This document shows positions 9,316-53,800 of a DNA stretch of 64,000 nucleotides, one piece after another. The DNA is from Moniliella sp. 'wahieum' (taxonomy: Eukaryota). The stretch spans positions 682,001 to 746,000 of the forward strand of contig RSEE01000007.1 of NCBI GenBank assembly GCA_003971905.1, read 5' to 3'. The notes under the pieces were generated by a model. The model was not told where the DNA came from. It saw nothing but the letters and a program-made list of their open reading frames with translations, and made no database searches. The translations under genes and the position numbers were made by a program. The number at the start of each line of letters is the position of its first letter. Positions within the stretch are counted from its first letter, which is position 1.

Positions 9316-10105
9316 GGCGGAGGAGGAGGGGGGGGGGTGAGGTTAGAAGGACGACCTGCGGAAGCCAGGCCAAGTCAAGCCAAGCCAAGCCAATTAGCTA
9401 GTCCGACCGGGGAAAATAGAATTCTTCCGGAGGGGCAGCCGGGAGGATGCTCGATGCCAACCCAACGGCCAAACGGAGGAACCCTAGCGCGGCGGCACGG
9501 GATGACATAAGCAAACTGGGAAAGGACAAGAAGGGCGGGGAGTTAGGGTTGGGCAGGTTTGCACCTGAGAGAGCGGCGCGATGGACAGCATGAGCGTTCA
9601 AGTGGGCGTTGGATGTGCTGCGCTGGGGTGCGCTGCACGGCGGCAGCCCGGCGGCGGGCAGAGGCGCCGTGGGGCGTGGGGCGGCTGCCGGCACGGTTTG
9701 AAGCACGCCGCGAACACGCACGGCGCCAGTGTGGGCGCCGGTGTGCCCCGCAGTGCGCAGGTGCCCGAGGCGGCGCGGTGCCCGCCGGTGCTGGGCGCTG
9801 GCGGCTGTCCGAGACAGACATCCCCGCCGGCGTGGCCGAGCTCGGGGGCGGCGGGGCGGCGAGGTGGCGGCGAGGCAGCTGCGCCGGCAGCACATGGCAT
9901 GCGTAATGCATAATGCAAATGCAAATGCAGGTGCACTGCAGAGCACCAGCTACACAGTTCCTGGCTGCCTGCCTGTCTGCCGTCTGCCGTCTGCCTGGCT
10001 CGAGCACAGCACACAACACTACTCAGCGCTCCCAGCCTCCACCAGCTCCCCGGCCCCCTTTCTTCTCTTCCTCGTCCCCCACCCTCCCCTCCCCACCGCC
10101 CCGCC

Positions 10106-11345
10106 ATGGTCTTTGCCTCTGTGCTCCGTGCTGCCCCGCGTGCTGCCTGCGTGGCCACACGCTCTGCGCCGCGCGCAGCTGCCTCTGCTGCCTCTGCCCT
10201 TGCCCTCGCCCGCGAGGCCACCCGCCTCACCGCCCTCGTCACCCCCGCAGCTCCGCAACGCCTCTGGCAGCGGCGATGCCCCCAAGGAGCTCACCGTGCG
10301 CGATGCCCTCAACAGCGCCATGGAGGAGGAGATGCTGCGCGACGAAAAGGTGTTTATCCTCGGCGAGGAGGTGGCCGAATACAATGGCGCCTACAAGGTC
10401 ACCCGTGGTCTGTTGGACAAGTTTGGGCCCAAGCGGGTCATCGACTCGCCCATCACCGAGGCCGGCTTTAGCGGTTTGGTCGTGGGTGCGGCCTTGTCGG
10501 GCCTCAAGCCGATTTGCGAGTTTATGACCTTCAAGTGAGTCCTGTGTTCCGTAGCGTGCACGCGCCCGAGCGAACCGAAACTGACTCGAGCCGGTGCGGT
10601 AGCTTTGCCATGCAGGGCATTGACCAGATCATCAACTCGGGTGCCAAGGTCCACTACATGAGTGGTGGCGTGGCTACCTGCCCAATTGTTTTCCGTGGCC
10701 CCAATGGCGCGGCGGCCGGTGTGGCTGCCCAGCACTCGCAGGACTACTCGAGCTGGTACGGCCAGATCCCGGGTCTCAAGGTCCTTTCGCCCTATGACGC
10801 CGAGGATGCACGTGGTCTCCTCAAGGCCGCCGTGCGCGACCCCAACCCGGTCGTGTTCCTTGAGAACGAGATCCTGTATGGTCATTCCTTCCCTGTTACG
10901 CCAGAGATCCTGTCGGACGACTTTGTGCTGCCCATTGGCAAGGCTAAGATCATGCGCCCCGGTAAGGATGTCACCTTGTCACCCACACCATCAACGTCGG
11001 CCACGCGCTTGAGGCCGCTGAGCAGCTCAAGAAGGAAGAAGGCATTGAGGCTGAGGTGATCAACCTGCGTTCCATCCGCCCCTTGGACATTGACACGATC
11101 ATTGCGTCGATTAAGAAGACCAACCACCTGGTCACGATCGAGTCTGGCTTCCCTGCGTTTGGGGTGGGCTCGGAGATCTGCGCCCAGATCATGGAGAGCG
11201 AGGGCTTTGACTACCTCGACGCGCCTGTGGAGCGTGTGACGGGTGCCGATGTGCCCACGCCCACGCTATCAACCTCGAGGCTGCTGCTTTCCCCTCGACC
11301 GATTCGGTCGTCACGGCTGCCCGGCACGTTTTGTACCGCGCCTAA
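10106..11345 (+). CDS. PDB1: Pyruvate dehydrogenase E1 beta subunit, mitochondrial
   Basis: [56 protein letters not shown] and [17 protein letters not shown]. Intron ~10536-10602. Confidence 0.96.
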
Positions 11346-31696: not shown

Positions 31697-34643
31697 CTAG
31701 GCATAGGCGCTTGCCTCCTCGGCCAAGGCAGTCAACTCATCTGCCATCTCTTCATCCTCGTCGCGCATTGGCGCCGCTTGGGCGGAAGAGGCAAGCGGCG
31801 GAGCGAAGACTTGCTGTTCCGTCGTCAGGGCCGCCTGGGCTTGCAGGTCCGCCAACATTTGTCGCAAGCGCGCGGTGGTGCCTTGGCTTCGGCCTGAACG
31901 GTGGCTTGGTGGGAGGAGACTTGGTCTCGTTGGCTGGCCAAGTAAAGTTGCTGCTCCATGAGCTGTTCTCGTGCCTCGTCCACGTCGCCCTCGACTTCGA
32001 TGACCTGGGACTCGAGGTGGGCCAAGTGCCTGCGCGTCCGTTTGAGCCGTTGATTCAACTCGCTGGACCGAACCATGGCTTGGGTGCACTTTTCTGCCAC
32101 TTGTTGGCGCTTGGTGCGAAGCGTGTGCCTCGAGCTTGGCCATCTCTTGCGACATGCCCACCACGCTCGTCTGGCTCGTCACCACCCGTGCAGACCAGCG
32201 CTCCTTCTCGCCGCGCAGAATGAACGGCCCCGTGCAGAGACGCGGCAGATACCCATTGTTGGTCCCGTTTCGGCGCGTGGTAGGGTCCGGTGAGGCGCGC
32301 GGCAGTTCGACTTCAATCCGTTTGGCCAGCGCTTCGGGGGGAATGTCATCGGGATAGCCGGTGAGTGCCAAGGGCTCCCCCAGCGTCAGCTCCAATTCGA
32401 GGTTGATCGGTGCTAAGGGCGATACGCTGCCTCCGATGCCAGTGCCGGGATGGGAGGAAGCAATGACGGTAGCCCCATGTGCATCGACCTCTTTGTCAAG
32501 AATACAGTTGCCTAGAGCATCCACGAACGAATTGTAGGTGGCGCTGCGCATCAGCAGGTCCACCAGCGCATTGGGCAGCGTGAGCAGCACGCTTTGTGGC
32601 AACCGAGGTCGACAACGAGGACCAGCATCGAATGATGGATCACAGACAGCGTCGAATTTCTTTCGCCCTCGTACAAGCCAACCGGCAGAGGCCCCGACAA
32701 GGGCACCACCCACACGGGTTTGGCCAACAGAATGGACTTTTCACTGGGCGGCCGCCATTGGTCCTGCTCGACAAACGTGGCCAGTGCCGTGCGCACCCCC
32801 GCGGGGAGACGCGTGGCTTGGCGCACCTTTTGCGCCACGTACCGCCTCTGTGCAAGAGGAAGAGGGCGTGCCGTACCCAGCGGCGCACTGGGAGGCAACC
32901 GCTCCGGCGGAGCAGGAACCGTGCCCAGACCAGGCACCAAGGTGTACCTCTCATCCGACAGCGGGCGAATTTCATCCAGACGGTCCCCCACCTCAATCCC
33001 TCTCTCTCCAACGTCGGCGACCATTGGATGGGACGCGGATGGGGTCGCCAGTCCTGCCCATTCAGTCGGAGTGGAACCTCAGTCTCGCCAGGCAACCAAA
33101 TGACCGTCTGATCAGGCGAAGGGCGGCCCTCCTCCTCCACAGAGGAAGACGACTGAGAGGAAGTAGTCTGGGACGCACGAGAAGCTACTGGAGCGGGAGC
33201 GGGTGCGGGAGCGGGTGCGGGTGCGGGTGCGGGAGCGGGTGCGGGTGCGGGTGCGGGAGCGGGTGCGGTGCGGGAGCGGGTGCGGGTGCGGGTGCGGTGC
33301 GGGTGCGGGAGCGGGTGCGGGTGCGGGTGCGGGAGCGGGAGCGGGTGCGGGAGCGGGTGTGGAGCGGGTGCGGGAGCGGGCTTGGGAGCGGGTGCGGAAG
33401 CGGGAGCGGGAGGCGATGCAGCGGTTCCCTGTGGCCGGGATGGTGGAATCGTTGGGCGTTGGGCGAGTTTCGGTGCCGGAATAGAAGGTTGAGGATCAGA
33501 AGGACGTGGAGGCTCAAAGGATCCCAGTTCCCATCTGATTCATCCATAGCTTCCGGGGGAGAGATGAACAGCGGGGGAGACGCGCCCGTTACTCTTACAT
33601 TTAGTGAGTCGTCAAACTCGTCCTGATGAGCGCTGATTGGAGTCAATGGCGACGAAGCTCGAGAGACGTCACTTTGCACATCATCATATTTGCCCTGACG
33701 AAACTGGAGAAGCAATCGTTTGGGTTTGTCGCAAGTCCAGTGACGCAGAGTCCCTCACCCCAGATTCCGTTGCCGAAGGTTTGGAAAGGGGAGGAGGCAA
33801 CGGCCGCTCCTTGGCAGATGACGCCTTTGTCAGTTCCAACCGAGGCGGGGAGTGGGGCAGCATCGAATGAAAGTCTTCCGGCTTGCCGAGGGATGAGATG
33901 GGCAGACGCGGCCGCTTATTACGTGATTCAACCGACTCGTCCAGGGGACGTTTGCCTGTAACTGACTTCGAGGAACCATGTGTGGTGCCTGGAGCAAAGT
34001 AAAAGTCAGAAAAAGGAGTGCAGAAAAGTGGAGCAGAGCGAAGAACTCACAGACGCTTCTCCAGTAGAAGCTATTCTAGATTCGACGCTGGGTAGGATGG
34101 GCTGAGGGTTGTACGAAGAGGTGGACTGAAGGCTGGCCTGGGGGTGGGACTGAGACTGGGACTGGGGCTTGGATTCCCGCTTCGAAGCCAGCCCGAGCTC
34201 GGTGTGTGGAGCGGGTTCGGATACTGGCTCTGGTTTGTGTATCGGCAGGGGCCCAGTGCGGGCGCTGGACGAAGGTCGGATTGGGGCGGGGGGGCTGGAG
34301 GAGGGGCAGGAGGACAGCTGGGGCTGGAGATCGGCGTAGAGCGGGAGGCGGAGGCGGAGTGCCTGGTCGATGCCGAGGACAGTAGTCCGGTCCTGCTTGT
34401 CGAGTGACGCGGCATGGATGCTGGCCATGAGGAGGCTGCGGCGCAGGCGGGAGGGGGCGGGTGTGGAGGGGAGGGTCCATTGGGTGGAGGGGGGGGAGGG
34501 GCGCGGGGGGTTGGGCGGAGGGGCCGGGATGCGGGGGCGGAGGCGGTGGTCTTGGCCCTGGCAGGGCTCTGGGTGGCGGAGGCGGATCTGCGCGCCGAGG
34601 GAGCACGGCTGCTGGTGCGCGACCTGTGATGGCGGTTGGCCAT
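31697..34643 (-). CDS. Large hypothetical protein: basic NLS-like segment, Pro-Ala repeat, central globular region, C-terminal coiled coil, possible TM extension
   Basis: Collinear minus-strand ORFs and an intron GTGAGT..CTGAC..CAG 34050-33989. Contains KRPLDE..NKRPRL and heptad-rich LNQRLKRTRRHLAHLESQVIEVEGDVDEAREQL. May extend past 31697 through a frameshift to a hydrophobic segment at ~31570-31520. Confidence 0.5.
33189..33410. repeat. Hexamer microsatellite (GCGGGT/GCGGGA)n, encoding poly(Pro-Ala) on the minus strand
   Basis: About 35 imperfect tandem units read directly. Confidence 0.9.
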
Positions 34644-34868
34644 CGTGGAGCAACGGGTGGTGGTGGTGGGCTGGGCGTGGTGGTGTTGCGCGCAAGATGA
34701 ATCCCGCGCGGCCGACTAAACGCCTCGACTTGTGCTTCGACCCGAGGCGGCGATTGAATATTGGTTGCCTTTCGAGTGCCTGTCCAACGCGTGCGCCTTT
34801 TCTGCGGGTTGCAGTTTTCATGCAAATCAGCGATCGCCTGTCTGGAGCTATCCAATCTGGGCATCAAC

Positions 34869-34968
34869 GGTCGGATGGTCTAGCTGGTCATGACGTACGC
34901 TTCACATCCTGGAGCAACAGGTCTCGTTGAGACGCGTAAGGTCCCCGGTTCGATCCCGGGTTCGATCA
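34869..34968 (+). tRNA. tRNA-Val(CAC) with a 26-nt canonical intron
   Basis: Acceptor stem GGTCGGA/TTCGATC, D-arm with TGGTCTAGCTGG, anticodon stem TACGC/GCGTA, loop TT-CAC-A followed by the intron, T-arm CCCGGTTCGATCCCGGG, then a T-run Pol III terminator. Confidence 0.93.
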
Positions 34969-35392
34969 TTTTTGCTTCAGAACACTGCCGTAGCAGTGCC
35001 CTGGGCTTTTAACATTTCAGTTTGAGTCGCCTGTCTGCCAGTGCCTTACGCATCATCACACGTGGCTGATCACCCATCTTTGGATCGATGTGGCGCTGGC
35101 CTCGAGTCGATCCGGCACTCCGCCCATGGCTCTCTCTGAATCGTACCATCGTCTCCCATGCCATGGCACGACACAACACGACAGGACACGTGCTCAGGAG
35201 ATTCGTTGGATAGCGTGTGGCTACCTCCAAGTCCAGCAATGGATACCTGATCCAGGGAGTATGTGCGCCGGTGTGGTGGCGTTTGGTTATTTTGCTCTTT
35301 TCCCGTTGAGATCAACGGAGATGCCTGTTCAGACCACCCGGTGGCTCGTGTGCTTGCTCAACTACGTCCCTGCAATTCCTCCTCCTCAGGCC

Positions 35393-35556
35393 TCAGGCCT
35401 AGGAGTTCCGTTGATTTCTCTCCCGTGTTTTCCTTGTTCCGCAGTGGCCCCTGGTGGCGATTCGCTGGTTGTTCCGCTGTAGTCGTTGCTGGTTGGCTTA
35501 GACCACCACCAGTGCGATTGCATCGCCCTCGAGGACAATCAGGACTCCGGGTCTCA
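35393..35556. mobile_element. MITE-like dispersed repeat, copy 2
   Basis: Shares TTCCTTGTTCCGCAG, GCCCCTGGTGG, GGTTGGCTTAGACCACC, AGTGCGATTGCATC and ATCAGGACTCC in the same order with 25395-25571. Confidence 0.6.
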
Positions 35557-36236
35557 TCAATGCCTATGGCAAAGGCCGGAGGCCCCGGCCTCTCAGTCTG
35601 AGGAGTCAGCCTGACTAGTGACTAGTGCCTATTGACTGGGTGGGGTGGTCTTTCCAACTCTGGGGTGTCTGTGAATAGAGGACGAGGCCCAAATCCCGCC
35701 CCAAGGCTTGGCTTGGCGAGAGACTTACATACGCACACGGCCAGGCGGAACGAGGTTATTACAGTGCGAATCGTCCGTCCCCTATAAACGCAGTGGCCCG
35801 ACATCCACCCAAACTCCACGTATTAGTAGCGGGTGTGCGCTGAGTGCCGAGGCACACTGAGGCCCTGATCTGAGGCCGAGGCCGCCTGGGTCTTCTGAGG
35901 CCTGAGGGACGAACGTTTGTCCATGTTGGCCAAGGACAATTATCACTGGTGCTCATCTCATCGATTGCTTGCTCAAGCTCAGCAGCGCGCAGCCAGCGCC
36001 TGCCATCCCCGCCCGGCCTGTGTGCCAACCGTGACCGTCACACTAGCAGCGCCGCACTAGCACCGCTCCTGCACGGCCACCCTGTTTCGAAGGTACCTGC
36101 GTACGCCTAAGACCCTGCGCATCTGGCCTGAGGCGCCTGAAACCCAGCCTCATCATCTGCATCATCTCCGGTTTGCGGGTGAGATCTTTCCTGTCATGCC
36201 CCGGGGTAGCCTTCGCCCCCCACCACCACCATCGCC

Positions 36237-37283
36237 ATGTCTTCATCCCAACCCAAGTCGACCCCGTCGTCTGAAGACCCTGCCCGACTAGCCGCGCTGC
36301 ACCAACGCATTGCGGCGCTCGAAGCCGAGGTGGCTGAGCTCAAGCGCACGCTCCCTCCGCCAGCCAAGGTGGTCGCGGTGCCCTCCCCGGTTCCCCTGCC
36401 GCCCCCGTCTCCTCCTTTGCCCGCAGCCCTGCCCCAGCCGGCCCGCTTTGCGCCTAACTGGGATCAGCAAGTTTCCACGTTTGCTGAAACAGGTCTCAAG
36501 CCGGAGCTGGTGTCGGCTCTGCGTGAGAATGGGTACGACTAGCATGCTCCCTCTTTCGTCCGACACTGCGGCCCCCGTTCGTTATTCGTGTTGCTGACTC
36601 CCAATTCCCCTTCCAGGTTCATCAAACCGACCGCGCTGCAGTCAACGGCCATTGTGCCGCTGATTCAGGGCAAGACGATGCTCTTGCAATGCCCGCTGGC
36701 GGTGGCCGCACAATCAGTTATGCTCTGAGTGCGCTCCAAGCATTGACCCCAACAGCAAGCACGTCCAAGTTCTCATCCTGGCTGCCTCTAAGGAGCGAGC
36801 CGCACAGATTGTCCACGATATTCGTGCCTTGTCAGGTGGGATTTGGGGGGCCATGATTCGGACGATGACGTTGCCAGTCGGGTGTACTCTTGCTTGCCAG
36901 GCACCAAGACGGACACTGACCGCCATGCCCTATCTGCCCGCCCGAATTGCGTGGTGGGCACGCCTGGACGGGTGTTCCATTTGCTGGACCGAGCGCATCT
37001 GCCCATCTCGCACTTGCGCCTGCTCATTGCCGACGAAGTGGATGACTTGCTTACCACCTTCCGCCAGCTCGTGATGGAGATTATGCGCTTCCTCCTCCCT
37101 ACCCCGGCTCCTACAGCGGACCATGGCTTGCAGACAGTCTGGGGGGCGGACCACTTTAACAGCAAACTCCTCTCCGGCGCACTTCAGTTCGCTCCGAATC
37201 CGACAATGTGTGCCGTTCGACGCAAGGATGGGGTCTGGCGCGTGGTCACGGTCAAGAAGGACGCTGAGCAGGCGAAGATGTAA
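36237..37283 (+). CDS. Truncated, degenerate eIF4A-like DEAD-box protein (N-terminal RecA domain only)
   Basis: NWDQQVSTFAETGLKPEL..G, intron 36533-36617, then FIKPTALQSTAIVPLIQG (Q motif), QVLILA, VVGTPGRVFHLL and LIADEVD. Stops with TAA where the second RecA domain should begin. Confidence 0.8.
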
Positions 37284-38018
37284 GGGCGTATCTTGCACCC
37301 AGCCATGTGCTATTCCCAAGCCTGTATCATGCACAGCAGGGCGTTTTTCAGTGTCTGCCTACTATTGTCTTTTCGCTACAAACTTAATCGTAACGCGTAA
37401 CTATCCTTCTTGTTGGCGAGGAAATGCTGGTTCGATCTGGTAATCTGCAAATGGAGGATACATGCTACACTGCGTCAGCGTGATCTACCTGATCGTGTCC
37501 TTCGATCGGTGTGCGACCTGAATACTAGTTTGAATCTGCCAACAGTGTTCAGGCTTGGTCGACCGTAAGATCCTCACCTTCTAAAGACTCGTCCAGTAGG
37601 TACTTTGGCGTGCAGGTATGAATGTTCCGGTATTCTCCAGGAGCTTCGCGGCGAGTGGTCTCCGCGATCATGCATGCTATCACAAGGAAGTATAAGCGTC
37701 ATACACGAGCAGCAGCACGGCGACCTGCTCCGGTCATGAAGTCGATGCAGCTCAGACTTCCCAATTTACCCAGCTAACCAGCCTGTTCAGACGGACGCAG
37801 GACACAGGCTACCCAAGGCTACCCGGACCTTCTCGACATGGGCCCAAGGAATGCTTGTCACCCACAATGACCACTTGGTATGCACCCCATTATGCCCGCT
37901 CCAAGTTAACCATTCTTCCCTGGCGTGCCCTTGCCAAAACACCTATACAAGTGTGCAACAACAATGGTCCGCGATGAACAGGTTGTGTATGCATATAAAT
38001 CGTCCAGCACCATTCACC

Positions 38019-39060
38019 TCAATGCTTGCCGCCGGCCTTGATCATGTCCAAGAACGAGTCTTTCGACGCAAGACTCTTTTTCGTCCCTGGTGCTAGCGGG
38101 GGCTTTCCCATAACACTCCGCACCAGTCCAGACGTCTCCTCCTCCTCTGGAGGGGCAGCCGCTTGGCGCTGGGAGTCACGGATGACATTGAACAGCTTAA
38201 CGACACCACGTTGTGCCACTTTGCGTACCGCTTCTCGTACCCACCCGAACCACCTTGGTCATCCCAGGCGGCTAGAGCGTCATCATCCAAAGGACTGCAC
38301 CCAGCGCAGGAGTAAGGGCGCCATCATAATTGACCACCTGCCCTGGTGGACCCCAAGAAGAGATGATGTCCTTTACATGGGTCAATTCAAAAGCCTTCTT
38401 GCGCTCGGCTACCAGCTCCCGTTCCGCCTTCGAAGCAAGTGATGCCTTGGCGCCTGCACGATTGATGTGCGGAGCAAGAGCAAGGATGGGTCCCTGGGTC
38501 GAAGTAGTTTGTGCAGAAGGGGAAGAGACTCGAGCACGCTTCGCTGGCTGCGCAGGCACTTCGTGCGCTTCATCCTCCTCAACCTGCGAATCGGGGTCGT
38601 CTGTCTCACTACCCTGGTCAGAAAACGGCTGCGACCCTTCCTCGTCTTCGTGGGCTAGAGCCACGGGCATTGGCGCGGACGACCCGAGAAGGTCGAGAAG
38701 AGTGGCACCAAAAGCGGTCGGAGACACAGCGCGGCGTTTACGTTCTGGCAACATGATGGGGTTAGTGGTGTAAATTTAACACGTAGTAGGTGAGTGGTGA
38801 AAGCATACTCTGGGTTTTCTTGCTCTTAGGGGCAGCATGGGCGCACGAATTTCGTCCTCCGTGTCTGGTTCCGACTCGCTCTCGGACGCGCTGGAGTCGG
38901 AATCGGCATCGTTGTCGCTAGCAGGGTTCCGTTGTGGGGGCGGCCGGCGGCCAAGGGTGGAAGATGGCCTGGACGGAGGGCCAGCGCGCATGGAAAACTT
39001 CGACTTTGGTTTGGGCCTGTCACCAGTGGGGTGTGAAGAGCTGGGGTGGGGCTTGGCCAT
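38019..39060 (-). CDS. RRP15: Rrp15 ribosome biogenesis protein
   Basis: C-terminal YEKR..KVAQRGVVKLFNVIR and SKDSFLDMIKAG are diagnostic of Rrp15. Probable intron ~38808-38760. Confidence 0.85.
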
Positions 39061-39364
39061 GGCGGTAACTCAGAGGTGGTGCTTGTTGAAGCTGTGGGTG
39101 TGCGTGGGTGCCACCAATTCAATCAAATGTCAATAACCAAGTGGGGATTCCGAAAAAAAATATGGGAGGCGGGGGCGGAATGAATCGGTGGGAATCGCGG
39201 GGAGATGTACCCTGAGGTACCGCAAGTTGCACCGACTGTCGATAGTCGCCGGACCCACTATCGCAGCCCAATCTGGTGCGCCAGGGCCAAACGACTGCGT
39301 GGCCAATTCAACACCCAGCCGCCACCCCGTCTCCACTTTCGTTGCCACTACCTCCGTGTCTGCC

Positions 39365-40822
<1,458 letters not shown>

Positions 40823-42425
40823 GAGTATTCCCGGCCAACTAGATCCCCACCCTGCATTATATGTTCAAACTCGATTTAAGCAACACTGCCGTAGTAACGA
40901 TATCTTGCAAAGCCCAAAAGTATGGCACAATCATCCGTCAAAGTCTCTGCCTAAATGTGACCATCGTTATGCGACGTTATAGCGCATTTAGTTGGCTGAA
41001 CCAGCGAGCAGGTCATCGAAGTCTTCGAGGGATCCAACAGCTGGAGAAAAGGGTATGCCACCACGTCAGCCCTCCTCTCTAGTAGTAGGGACGAAAAAAA
41101 AACACCAGATCATATGTCAATCATTCGACATCATCAATCACAGTGAGCTGCATGAGCAAGAGAGTGGATTATAGTAGGCCTGGTTTTCGACCAGATAATA
41201 TGTGTATACCAAGCCGATGAGTCTCCTACCGTGGCAGATATCTAGATCATCAACCACCATTCCCATATGTTGGTCCAATGGCGTTCCATGACTTCACAAC
41301 CTTGGCTTCCAGCCTCAATATATCTTTTCGATCTTCGAGGAGGGACCCTAAAGCCTGGGCTATAGTACTGCGGCGCCACACTTTTTGATGATTGGGATCG
41401 CAGAAAAGCAAACAAGACAAGCAGGACGAGGTACTCAACGTGGAGCTTCGCTTCGATTTGAATACCACTGGTGCGTATATATAGTGTGCCTCGTATATCT
41501 TGACATATCTCGTCTCTCAGAATCTCTGGCCTCTCATGCTCAGGTGCTCAGGCTAGGCCTTGTGGTCCTATAGTACTACGACCTTGTTTTTCAGTGGTCG
41601 TCTCCAACATGTATGTCATTGATGTCACTTGTCACACGTATATCGGTCAGCAAAAAAGAGAGCAGGCCAGACCTCCTCCCCGCTTGTCAGTCTCAGTGCC
41701 TCAAACTTGCCCCCATCATCGACATCATCTGCATCATCGACAGCCCTCACACGCTCTTTTCTTGATATAAGTTGGTCTTGGATCAATGATTTTATTATTG
41801 GCATTGAGCGCATTGTGTGTGTGTGGAATATGCGTTTTTAAGTATCTCTGCCGATGCACTTGAGTCGCACACCTCTCCCCGCCGGAACGGTCATCAGAGC
41901 AACATGGGCCTCTAGCCGGACTGTCACATGTTACCGAAGGATCGCTACTCTCAGCTGTGCTGTTACATGTTCATGTTGTTGGACGAGAAATCAGTGGGGG
42001 CGTTTCTTGTATATTGTGGAGTGCGCGATCCTTGGGTCCGATCTCTGGAGATCTGGGTTGGCCCGAGACACCAACAGGGTACTGTCCTAGACACGATGAT
42101 CGATGATCGATGAACGCCACAGTCTAAGTTGAAGGCTGTTCAAAACTCATTATGCATTATGGACCTTGCCTTACTAGTACTATCACCGCCACCACCACCA
42201 CCACAACCACCACCATCACCTCGACCTTTGCGGATCCACTCCGGGTCCAACAACCCCACACACCGCAGCCATTTCTGGATTTATTTTGCTCATCCCACAA
42301 TACCTCCGTCCTCGCTGTGTGTTCTCTTCTTACACTCACTCTCAGAGGGCCAAGGATACATATCCCTTCCTCTTTCGTACCCCTCTATCTCTGCTTCACT
42401 CCTCGTCTGCCAATTCATCCCCATA

Positions 42426-51560: not shown

Positions 51561-53624
51561 TTACTTCCGATAACGCAGCTTGGTAAAGTTAAAGAAGAGC
51601 TGCAGCACCCCGCTCGAACGAGTTGCGGAACCCCTTGCGCCGCCCCATCTCCCACGGCTTGTTTACGATGCGGAACGCAATGTCCTCGTACGGAGGTCCG
51701 GCGCGGAACACCAGGAGCACCGTTTCCTCGTCGCCCGGGCGGCGCAGCTCATACGTGGGCGCCTTGAGCGGATCAATCAGGTCGGGATAAAAAATGTTGA
51801 ACTTGTAGCCTTGGACCACCTTGGGTGGTGGGTTGTCGGTATCGTAGTGGGTCTGGTTGTACTTGTTCCACTCAAAGCCGGTAGCGACACGGTTCATAAA
51901 CCGAGGCTTGCGCGGTCGGTACTTGTTCTCCCACGCATACGTCCCTTTGACTGCCGTCGGCACATTGAACGCTTCCTGGCCAAACGCCTCCACTTCGTCG
52001 TCCGAATCCTGGTCCATCGCCCGCGCTGCATCGGCTTGGTACCGCGCGCAGGTCCTCGTCGCCGTCAAAGTCCTCGTCACCCCCATGCACTTCTTCTTGC
52101 GTCCCAGTCCGAAGAGCCGGCTTGGAATGGGAAGGTCCGCGCCTTCTCCCTGCGCCATGGGTACAAAGGTTTGGGCCAGTACGGCCTTCCGAGCCATAAG
52201 GAGAAGGTTCCGGTCTTGAGCCTGGTCCACGATGGGGAACTGGTCGACAAAGGGAAGGGTGGAGTAGTCGGTTTCCGGGATGGTAGGTGGCTCGAGATCC
52301 AACGTAAAGTTGGTTTCGGTGGGAACCGAAGAGGGAGGGAGGGACCGCTGGTGAGGAGCGCAACCTCACGTTGTTTCCTCCGCAAGAACTCGATCCGGTT
52401 GGCAAGGACAAGTTTATGGATTTCCCTCAGCTGGTGCCGTGCTAGGAATACATCAATCTTGCGCACCAGCAACAGCCAATATTCCATATCGATGGGTTCG
52501 CCCGAGCTGAGTTTGGCCTCGACAGAGCGCTTGAGCGTCTCGAGTTCGTCTGCCGTCTTGGCCTCGAGCATGCTCTCCATTTTGGCTTGCACCTCGGGCT
52601 TGTCCTCGCGCAAAGAGGCAAGTGTGTCGTCGCACAAGAGCTGAAGAGCATGCCAAAAGGCCCGATTCCGTGCATCGGTTTCGAGAGAGAGGTACATGGC
52701 AATGTCCGCCTTCAGCTCCACCACCTCCCCCTCATCGAGCATTTGAAAGACCGAGTCGGGCTCCTTCAGATCCACTTCCAATCCAGCCTCGTCGTCCTCG
52801 TCGCCCTCGCCCATCTCCTCTTGCGGGAGGGCCATTCCATTGCGTTCTGCCAGCGCCATCTCGACCGATTTCGCCGACCGCCGGGCGCCGCGGCCAGGCT
52901 CGGCCCAGCGCAAATTCATCGCCATCACATCGATTGGTTTCGCCCGATTCTCTCGGATCCGGATCGCAGCTCTCTTCTTGGCCTGCGTCAGAGAAAACTC
53001 ATCTTCCTTCTCCACCCACTCTATCGCCCCCTGATCCTGGTTTAAGCGAGTCAGTCGCTCCTCTTCCTCCCGGCGGAGCTGGGCCTCCTTCTCTCGCTGG
53101 ACTCGGCGGGCGGAGAGGAGCGCAATCTCTTCCTCGGCCTCTTTCCTCCGCACCTCGTCCCGCCGCCTCGCTTCCTCAGGGGTGAGACCCATGCGTCGTT
53201 CCTTCTCCTCCTTCTTTGCCCATCGCTGCGGTGGGCGCTGCTCCTCTTCCCCGGCATACAGCAACACCTCGGCCTGCTTTCGCCGTGCCTCGGCTTCCTC
53301 CTCTTCTAGAGCACGTTTCCGTTTCTCGCGCCGGCGCTCAGCGCGCTTGCGGTCCCTCCGCTCCTCACTCGTCTCCCGCCGGCGAGGCGAACGTTCCCGC
53401 TCATGACGGTGACGAGCATGAGGCGAATCGTGTCGGTGACGTGACCGGGCGTCCCGGCGGTCGCGCTCTTCGTGCCGCCGCTCGTCGCGGCGATCGCGGT
53501 CGCGCTCCTCGTCTCGTCGGGAACGATGTCGGTCTCGACGGTTGGAGTGGGAGTGGGAGTGGGAATGGGAGTGGGAGGAACGGGGACGGCGGTCGGGGGG
53601 CGCAGCGTCAGGAGAGTCGGGCAT
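51561..53624 (-). CDS. CACTIN: Cactin (spliceosome-associated)
   Basis: Arg-rich N-terminus; mid domain EDEFSLTQAKKRAAIRIRENRAKPID; C-terminal KYRPRKPRFMNRV.TGFEWNKYNQTHYD.DNPPPKVVQGYKFNIFYPDLID, AGPPYEDIAFRIV and LQLFFNFTKLRYRK*. Confidence 0.95.
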
Positions 53625-53681
53625 GGTGGTGGTGGCGGGGCTGCTGATACAAGTTGAGCACCTGCAGCGGCTAGCAGCGAT

Positions 53682-53703
53682 ATTCCGCCCTGCGGTGCGG
53701 AAT
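53682..53703. promoter_or_regulatory. Palindrome ATTCCGC-N8-GCGGAAT in the cactin bidirectional promoter
   Basis: Same arms and spacing as 15704-15725. Confidence 0.5.
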
Positions 53704-53800
53704 GCGCGTGGATTTACCCGCTGTGCTCAGCGACAACCACGTCGCGTCAAGCTTCAAGGCAGAGAGAGAGGGGGCAGGTCGACAGACAGACACCACCGCT

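Follow-up and report, generated by a model that had tools for sequence, protein, structure and literature searches.

A probable RecA1-only pseudo-helicase gene derived from eIF4A in Moniliella sp. 'wahieum'

In the 64,000-nucleotide stretch analysed here (the window: contig RSEE01000007.1 of the Moniliella sp. 'wahieum' assembly GCA_003971905.1, positions 682,001 to 746,000 of the forward strand, numbered from its first letter), the plus strand carries at 36237-37283 a gene that we refer to as half-eIF4A. Taking all the evidence together, the best explanation is a real, conserved, lineage-restricted gene for an eIF4A-derived pseudo-helicase with a single RecA1 domain, whose product would serve as a non-catalytic RNA/protein adaptor, and we hold this explanation with fair confidence. 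That the gene encodes a real and conserved RecA1-only pseudo-helicase is, taken by itself, very probable; the adaptor or RNA-binding mechanism as worded here, which is drawn by analogy, is put forward tentatively. A first-pass annotation of this DNA had described a single eIF4A-type RecA1 domain with degenerate ATPase motifs, and the motifs, the relatives and the missing RecA2 domain bear this description out.

Gene structure and intact relatives of half-eIF4A

The gene consists of two exons and one 84-nt GT..AG intron, and its product of about 321 residues starts with a zipper-like helix and a Pro-rich, probably disordered linker, after which come a single complete RecA1 (DEAD) domain and a short tail. 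Exon 1 (36237..36532) was delimited by translation and by alignment with the N-terminus of the full-length relative P0008. It contains the start Met, the zipper-like helix, the Pro-rich linker, a PNWD..V..F segment and the initial Q-motif region (…GLKPELVSALRENG); on the plus strand, the ATG at 36237 opens a frame that gives MSSSQPKSTPSSEDPARLAALHQRIAALEAEVAELKR…, the Pro-rich stretch and then …FAPNWDQQVSTFAETGLKPELVSALRENG. The spliceosomal intron (36533..36616, GTACGA…TTCCAG) has its GT at 36533 and its AG at 36616, with an in-frame TAG at 36540. The first-pass annotation was right in seeing a spliceable intron here, but its description as 'retained' does not hold, as this is an ordinary genomic intron and the term is meaningless without RNA. 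Exon 2 (36617..37283) supplies the remainder of the RecA1 domain, with the FIKPTALQ… Q motif, a degenerate Walker A, the motif Ia-like ASKERA, GTPGRV, DEVD, GAD and a terminal beta-hairpin, and it ends in AKM followed by the stop codon TAA (37272-37283, with the stop codon at 37281-37283).

All of the motif strings named in the first-pass annotation were found in the plus-strand translation of the gene: NWD at 36456-36464, GLKPEL at 36492-36509, KPTALQ of the Q motif at 36624-36641, the Walker A-like QCP and GGGRT at 36687-36695 and 36698-36712, ASKERA at 36784-36801, GTPGRV at 36957-36974, DEVD (motif II) at 37032-37043 and, at the SAT position of motif III, GAD at 37143-37151. The Pfam DEAD domain (PF00270) is recognized on the last frame piece of exon 2, at 36861-37280 (E 2.8e-10, 40.6 bits, cut-off 26); the shorter frame pieces have no Pfam match individually. 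This match and the identity to a relative given below show that the resemblance to a DEAD-box protein is no accident.

The N-terminus contains a short leucine-zipper-like helix, LAALHQRIAALEAEVAELKR (36288..36347, plus strand), in which 6/6 a/d positions are occupied by L, I or V, as are 5/7 in the helix of P0008. It shows merely weak, sub-threshold Pfam matches of the coiled-coil type, and might mediate pairing with a second copy of the protein or with a partner. The linker that follows (36348..36452, plus strand) is probably disordered, the equivalent segment of P0008 being modelled at a predicted local distance difference test score (pLDDT) of 46-67. The new coiled-coil and Pro-rich N-terminus noticed earlier is present, but the term 'polyproline' was too strong for a linker with 14 prolines in 35 residues.

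Relatives were identified starting from the 140-residue C-terminal piece of the protein, for which P0006 (252 aa) was the sole match among 718 candidates (73% identical, 100% covered, E 7.9e-59). A search with P0006 gave five close entries, P0006-P0010, with PF00270 only, and the entries that follow (E 1e-20 and weaker) have PF00270 together with PF00271. When HMMER was run over 1.84 billion representatives, the close single-domain matches were limited to P0006, P0007 and P0009, plus P0030 at 7e-29. There are thus six intact relatives (P0006, P0007, P0008, P0009, P0010 and P0030), none with PF00271, and these are the homologs of the same architecture that the first-pass annotation had proposed to look for. 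A profile built from the six recovers only those six (E 7e-108 to 1e-84), followed by a gap down to 1e-35, where proteins named eIF4A or TIF1 begin. The window protein, read with X at three breaks in its frame, is 71-72% identical to P0006 and P0007, 54% to P0008 and 40-52% to the others, and 54/186 well-filled columns of the family alignment are invariant.

P0008 (318 aa) is a full-length relative. Its N-terminal helix SAALEARVAALEAEIASLKSLH is followed by a Pro-rich linker, the segment PNYDHQVTSF and the RecA1 domain, and a short tail closes the protein; the window protein has the same helix, linker and RecA1 domain and the same end point. The C-terminal ends agree as well, with [AS]KM in the window, P0006 and P0010 and AKL in P0007. 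P0008 is continuous across the position of the window's intron (RENGY|TKPTALQ), and the sequences of P0006 and P0009 open there with residues translated from the intron. This read-through, together with the uninterrupted P0008, fits a conserved intron; P0008 was possibly derived from a transcript. PF00270 scores 69.3 bits on P0008 and 84.6 bits on P0006 against a cut-off of 26.

Because the open reading frames (ORFs) remain intact and gap-poor, and can be aligned at such divergence, they argue for purifying selection on the family. The architecture is kept in several related sequences, and we therefore favour a working non-enzyme over gene debris. The first-pass annotation had left room for a decaying duplicate. 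We reject that possibility in view of the six intact relatives of the same architecture, 40-72% identical, and of frame breaks that look like assembly errors (see below).

Further searches did not widen the family. A scan of metagenome contigs with the family alignment gave 80 loci, none of which belongs to the family, as all are ordinary DEAD-box genes that are 28-39% identical, and the ESM Atlas queried with P0008 returned generic DEAD-only clusters only. The best non-family match to the profile, P0175, is a chimeric or duplicated eIF4A fragment and not a Cms1-like protein. Two very long proteins, P0028 (1675 aa) and P0029 (1859 aa), each contain 6-7 tandem degenerate eIF4A-like RecA1 units and no Helicase_C domain. 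They were considered as members and set aside: each of the 12 RecA1 units obtains a better score with an eIF4A profile than with that of the family, and the two are therefore taken to be 'poly-RecA1' proteins independent of half-eIF4A.

Frame breaks and the missing RecA2 domain

Exon 2 does not form one continuous ORF, as its reading passes from frame 0 to 2, from 2 to 1 and from 1 back to 0. A frameshift-aware alignment of 36617-37290 with P0006, P0007 and P0008 requires exactly three breaks, each of one missing base, and no further disruption; in this alignment 163/225 aligned positions are identical to P0006. The first break (0 to 2, 36690..36697) is a base missing from a CCC run, or next to it, in the Walker A-like loop CP(A)GGGRT. 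The second (2 to 1) lies at 36740..36759, and the exact base is ambiguous within that stretch. The third (1 to 0) lies at 36853..36878 in a family-variable loop directly after a six-G run, again with the exact base ambiguous. The earlier notice of a frameshift in the Walker A-like loop was thus correct, but the break is not a single one.

Such an accumulation of breaks raises the question whether the copy in the window has recently decayed into a pseudogene while the rest of the family functions, with the deletions, and a change of DEAD to DEVD, being real. Three frame breaks within 667 nt of exon 2, and DEVD in the window where 6/6 relatives have DEAD, speak for this explanation. It has to account, however, for a corrected frame that contains no stop codon and remains 71-72% identical to P0006 and P0007, and for the neighbouring VPS4 gene, in which three like breaks occur in about 1.4 kb. 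We regard recent decay of the window copy as distinctly unlikely.

The VPS4 gene (39366-40823, plus strand; MIT, AAA and Vps4_C domains) serves as a control. Its three breaks, each of one missing base, are located near 39537 (in a T run), 39916 (in a C run) and 40423, and separate the pieces 39446-39541, 39538-39921, 39918-40427 and 40424-40820, which lie in frames 2, 1, 0 and 2. The pieces are contiguous on yeast 5uie_A (residues 9-40, 41-163 and 168-333) and on mouse 1xwi_A (45-213, then 214-321), and Pfam divides the MIT domain between two overlapping ORFs. As merely 0-11 nt lie between the pieces, no intron fits at the joins. Three one-base deletions in about 1.4 kb of a conserved housekeeping gene are therefore best explained as assembly errors. 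Since its neighbour has three breaks of the same kind, the breaks in half-eIF4A are likely artefacts of the assembly too. Two further splits in the window were not counted as frameshifts, as both leave room for an intron: that of Transket_pyr (9702-11056, plus strand; profile positions 2-82, then 83-172) and that of the mid and C-terminal domains of cactin (51592-53726, minus strand). In both cases the parts lie in ORFs of different frames, and either introns or additional assembly indels could account for this. This assembly carries frequent one-base deletions, and caution is needed before a gene in it is called a pseudogene.

The RecA2 domain was sought by tblastn with four full-length eIF4A queries across the 64-kb window. 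Only query residues up to 242 were matched, at 36456-37229, and nothing further in the window scored better than E 0.1, so that the downstream RecA2 exon that had been considered as an explanation was not found. The protein terminates at the RecA1/RecA2 boundary, 20-30 residues past the last RecA1 strand. Between its stop codon and RRP15 lie 735 bp of intergenic spacer (37284..38018), defined from tblastn, the ORF list and the RRP15 Pfam matches, and neither the ORF list nor tblastn has a RecA2-like frame in it. The claim that no RecA2 motifs precede RRP15 is in this way borne out, and the convergent RRP15 gene (38019-39069) is placed on the minus strand by Pfam Rrp15p matches at 38019-38258 and 38272-38775, the domain being divided apparently by a small intron of about 48 nt.

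As for the wider neighbourhood, a tRNA scan of 33000-41500 found none. The gene content of the window includes fibrillarin, Rpn3, tubulin, a PKC-like gene, CDC24, cactin, VPS4 and RRP15, with short GT..AG introns, a combination in keeping with a fungus. Upstream of half-eIF4A, at 34006-34930, lies a GC- and Pro-rich region in which both strands have long open frames, none with a Pfam match.

Fold, motif state and ancestry

An AlphaFold2 model of P0008, computed from a 30-row alignment (mean pLDDT 83), begins with a helix at residues 2-22 (pLDDT 87-91), and a linker modelled with low confidence extends from there as far as about residue 75. Residues 78-301 form a complete alpha/beta domain with a beta-hairpin at its end. 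The best Foldseek matches are the isolated eIF4A DEAD domains 5zbz (human eIF4A1) and 2g9n, with a template modelling (TM) score of 0.94 on the target and a root-mean-square deviation of 1.5-1.6 Å; eIF4AIII (2j0s, 2hyi) and full-length eIF4A follow.

The state of the motifs was assessed by comparing the family with 24 eIF4A-type rows. In the Walker A motif, AQSGTGKT of eIF4A has become x-P-x-x-x-G-R-[T/I/V], in which P126, G130 and R131 are invariant; Arg thus stands at the place of the Lys in 6/6 relatives as well as in the window (GGGRT). Within this frame the P-loop varies between PAGGGRT and P[AETD][DE][AS]GR[IV], with acidic residues, and I or V at the Mg-binding Thr position, in the P0008 subgroup. 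Motif Ia has changed from PTRELA to A[SN]K[ED]RA, and at motif III the SAT of eIF4A is represented by AAD, GAD, TAA or HGG. VVGTPGR, on the other hand, is invariant across the family. Motif II reads DEAD in 6/6 relatives and DEVD in the window, where the difference at 37032-37043 is a single one of the C-to-T type in the Ala codon and may be real or a further assembly error. PTALQ is present in the window and in 3/3 covering relatives (P0006, P0008 and P0009), Q108 in the window and in 4/4, and the aromatic F upstream of the Q motif in the window and P0008. An invariant surface that is specific to the family, FHLLDR.H…S.L, lies on the helix that follows motif Ib. As judged from these alignments, the RNA-contact motifs of RecA1 and the Q and DEAD elements are better preserved than the phosphate loop and the coupling motif.

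Catalysis and RNA clamping by DEAD-box proteins require both RecA domains, with motifs V and VI supplied by RecA2 and a closed two-domain cleft. With no RecA2 and with the P-loop Lys changed to Arg, helicase activity of half-eIF4A is very unlikely. The earlier proposal of a catalytically dead protein is supported, by inference, through the missing RecA2 domain and the replaced Walker A Lys in 6/6 homologs and in the window.

The pattern of preserved motifs nevertheless lends something to two other explanations. One is that half-eIF4A is one half of a split helicase, which a separate RecA2 protein would join, perhaps via the zipper, to restore a DEAD-box core that is active or under regulation. 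The Q motif, TPGR and DEAD are indeed kept better than expected for a site without a nucleotide role, and the N-terminal zipper could recruit a partner. Against this stand the Arg in place of the Walker A Lys in every member, the acidic loop and the I/V at the Mg-binding Thr in the P0008 subgroup, the loss of SAT and the absence of RecA2 from the 64-kb window, and we give a split helicase very little credence. The second is a sensor that binds nucleotide and does not hydrolyse it, with ATP, ADP or AMP bound through the Q motif and DEAD box switching the binding of a partner. Q108 in the window and in 4/4 covering relatives, the upstream F in the window and P0008, and DEAD in 6/6 relatives are compatible with such a sensor, but the P-loop is the fastest-changing motif of the family, which suggests relaxed constraint on phosphate binding, and such a sensor appears improbable to us.

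Sequence, fold and tree all place the family closest to eIF4A, from which, on these comparisons, it descends. Against the PDB, the family profile scores 106 bits on yeast eIF4A, 102.7 on eIF4AIII, 95-98 on human eIF4A1/2, 74.5 on Dhh1, 60 on DDX39B and 58 on Dbp5, and the N-terminal PN[WY]D..V..F of the family corresponds to SN[WY]D..V..F in the eIF4A rows. In the trees the seven family rows are monophyletic (Shimodaira-Hasegawa-like approximate likelihood ratio test, SH-aLRT, 100; bootstrap/SH-aLRT 100/100) and form two subgroups, {window, P0006, P0007} and {P0008, P0009, P0010, P0030}. They sit among the eIF4A rows on a long stem, whose length varies with the model from 0.88 to 2.1 changes per site, and a position of the family as sister to a basidiomycete eIF4A was not rejected (approximately unbiased test, p 0.37). 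As other eukaryotic DEAD-box subfamilies were not included, the tree alone cannot separate an eIF4A from an eIF4AIII origin.

The RecA1 domain of eIF4A (yeast Tif1/Tif2, human eIF4A1/2) is the best match of the family in both sequence and fold, with about 30-37% identity to the eIF4A-type rows. Like eIF4A, the family has the N[WY]D..V..F segment, the Q motif, VVGTPGR and DEAD. Unlike eIF4A, it lacks RecA2 and SAT, has G-R-[TIV] in place of G-K-T in Walker A and A[SN]K[ED]RA at motif Ia, and possesses a 3-8-residue insert after the LGG/LSG turn in addition to the N-terminal zipper and the Pro-rich linker. eIF4AIII/Fal1 is nearly equal to eIF4A on the family profile and in Foldseek. Among the 120 best profile matches listed, those with a name are called eIF4A, TIF1 or eIF4A-I, and none Fal1 or eIF4AIII; to our knowledge, eIF4AIII has no N-terminal segment of the NWD type.

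Possible function and comparison with known systems

The eIF4A ancestry of the family, and the common theme of pseudoenzymes that compete with active paralogs, could be taken to indicate a decoy that sequesters eIF4G or another MIF4G protein from eIF4A or Fal1, as the first-pass annotation had proposed. In a study on yeast eIF4A, the isolated RecA_N domain shows no detectable binding of eIF4G by isothermal titration calorimetry (ITC), while RecA_C, the half that is absent here, binds with a dissociation constant of 1.3 µM (PMC3064780). According to the same study, the RecA_N interface contributes about 5% of the eIF4G binding energy, with ionic contacts through R35 and E43 (PMC3064780). These two residues were mapped to alignment columns by their R-8-E spacing, and not via the yeast sequence itself; in the columns so defined the eIF4A rows have R in 22/24 and E in 24/24, whereas the covering family rows have A (1 row) and T, I and A (3 rows), so that both ionic contact residues are replaced. 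As RecA_N alone showed no detectable binding in that study, and as the ionic contact residues are gone, a decoy for eIF4G or another MIF4G partner is disfavoured, and we consider it very improbable.

Returning to the adaptor that we prefer, half-eIF4A would neither hydrolyse ATP nor unwind RNA. The face of its RecA1 domain formed by the Q motif, the Lys/Arg-containing motif Ia, TPGR and DEAD would hold an RNA or protein partner, and the N-terminal zipper would link the protein to a copy of itself or to a different protein with a coiled coil. Its mode of action might be analogous to that of Cms1, a single-RecA pseudo-helicase that binds pre-rRNA.

Cms1/CMSS1 (PF14617), a factor of the 90S pre-ribosome, is the closest functional analogue, as a stand-alone single RecA-like fold that works as an RNA-binding assembly factor. 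Cms1 is described as having a helicase fold with no Walker A, DEAD box or second RecA domain, and as crosslinking to 18S rRNA helices 32-34 (PMC9715914). In lacking a DEAD box, Cms1 differs from the half-eIF4A family, which keeps its own. Membership in the Cms1/CMSS1 family was considered and rejected, since P0008 scores 17.3 bits (E 0.0033) where the cut-off is 35, and the match is confined to residues 205-238 around the TPGR/DE region. Utp25 is a further point of comparison, and is described as a DEAD-box-like pseudohelicase whose helicase motifs are dispensable (PMC9539457). It has both RecA-like domains, where the half-eIF4A family has one.

Literature searches for a RecA1-only paralog of eIF4A or of DEAD-box proteins gave no description of the half-eIF4A family. 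A survey of helicases in Ustilago maydis lists, in its main text, eIF4A, Fal1 and two basidiomycete-specific DEAD-box proteins that are said to have the helicase core (PMC12511879); half-eIF4A was not found in that main text, supplements aside (PMC12511879). The family is an independent, eIF4A-derived single-RecA pseudo-helicase with a new N-terminal module, represented by seven sequences so far, of a kind that Cms1 shows to be already known.

Some observations weigh against the overall explanation and should be set beside it. In general, the RecA1 domain of a DEAD-box protein has little affinity for RNA when isolated, which weakens the case for an RNA adaptor. All six relatives come from Logan assemblies, and none is present in NCBI or UniRef. 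The window copy itself has DEVD in place of the DEAD of all six relatives, in addition to its three frame breaks. Lastly, the Q motif and the DEAD box are kept, and nucleotide binding may persist. If it does, a more specific possibility would be a hitherto undescribed, lineage-specific regulator, a zipper-paired RecA1 module that recognises adenine nucleotide and RNA by way of its Q motif, DEAD, TPGR and Lys/Arg-rich motif Ia without ATP turnover, and that serves translation initiation or ribosome biogenesis as a static clamp on RNA or a trap for partners; judged from the motifs, we regard this as speculative and unlikely.

A clamp of two domains that depends on ATP and RNA is the defining feature of DEAD-box proteins, and conserved stand-alone descendants that consist of RecA1 only are rare; Cms1 was the sole described precedent found in the literature searched. 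The half-eIF4A family is narrowly distributed among known sequences, and its existence would mean that eIF4A itself gave rise to a conserved single-domain pseudo-helicase with a new head of the oligomerisation type. The family may be viewed as a natural experiment on the capacities of an isolated eIF4A RecA1 surface, in which the contrast between motifs that appear constrained (Q, the charge of Ia, Ib and II) and motifs that drift (I and III) is informative.

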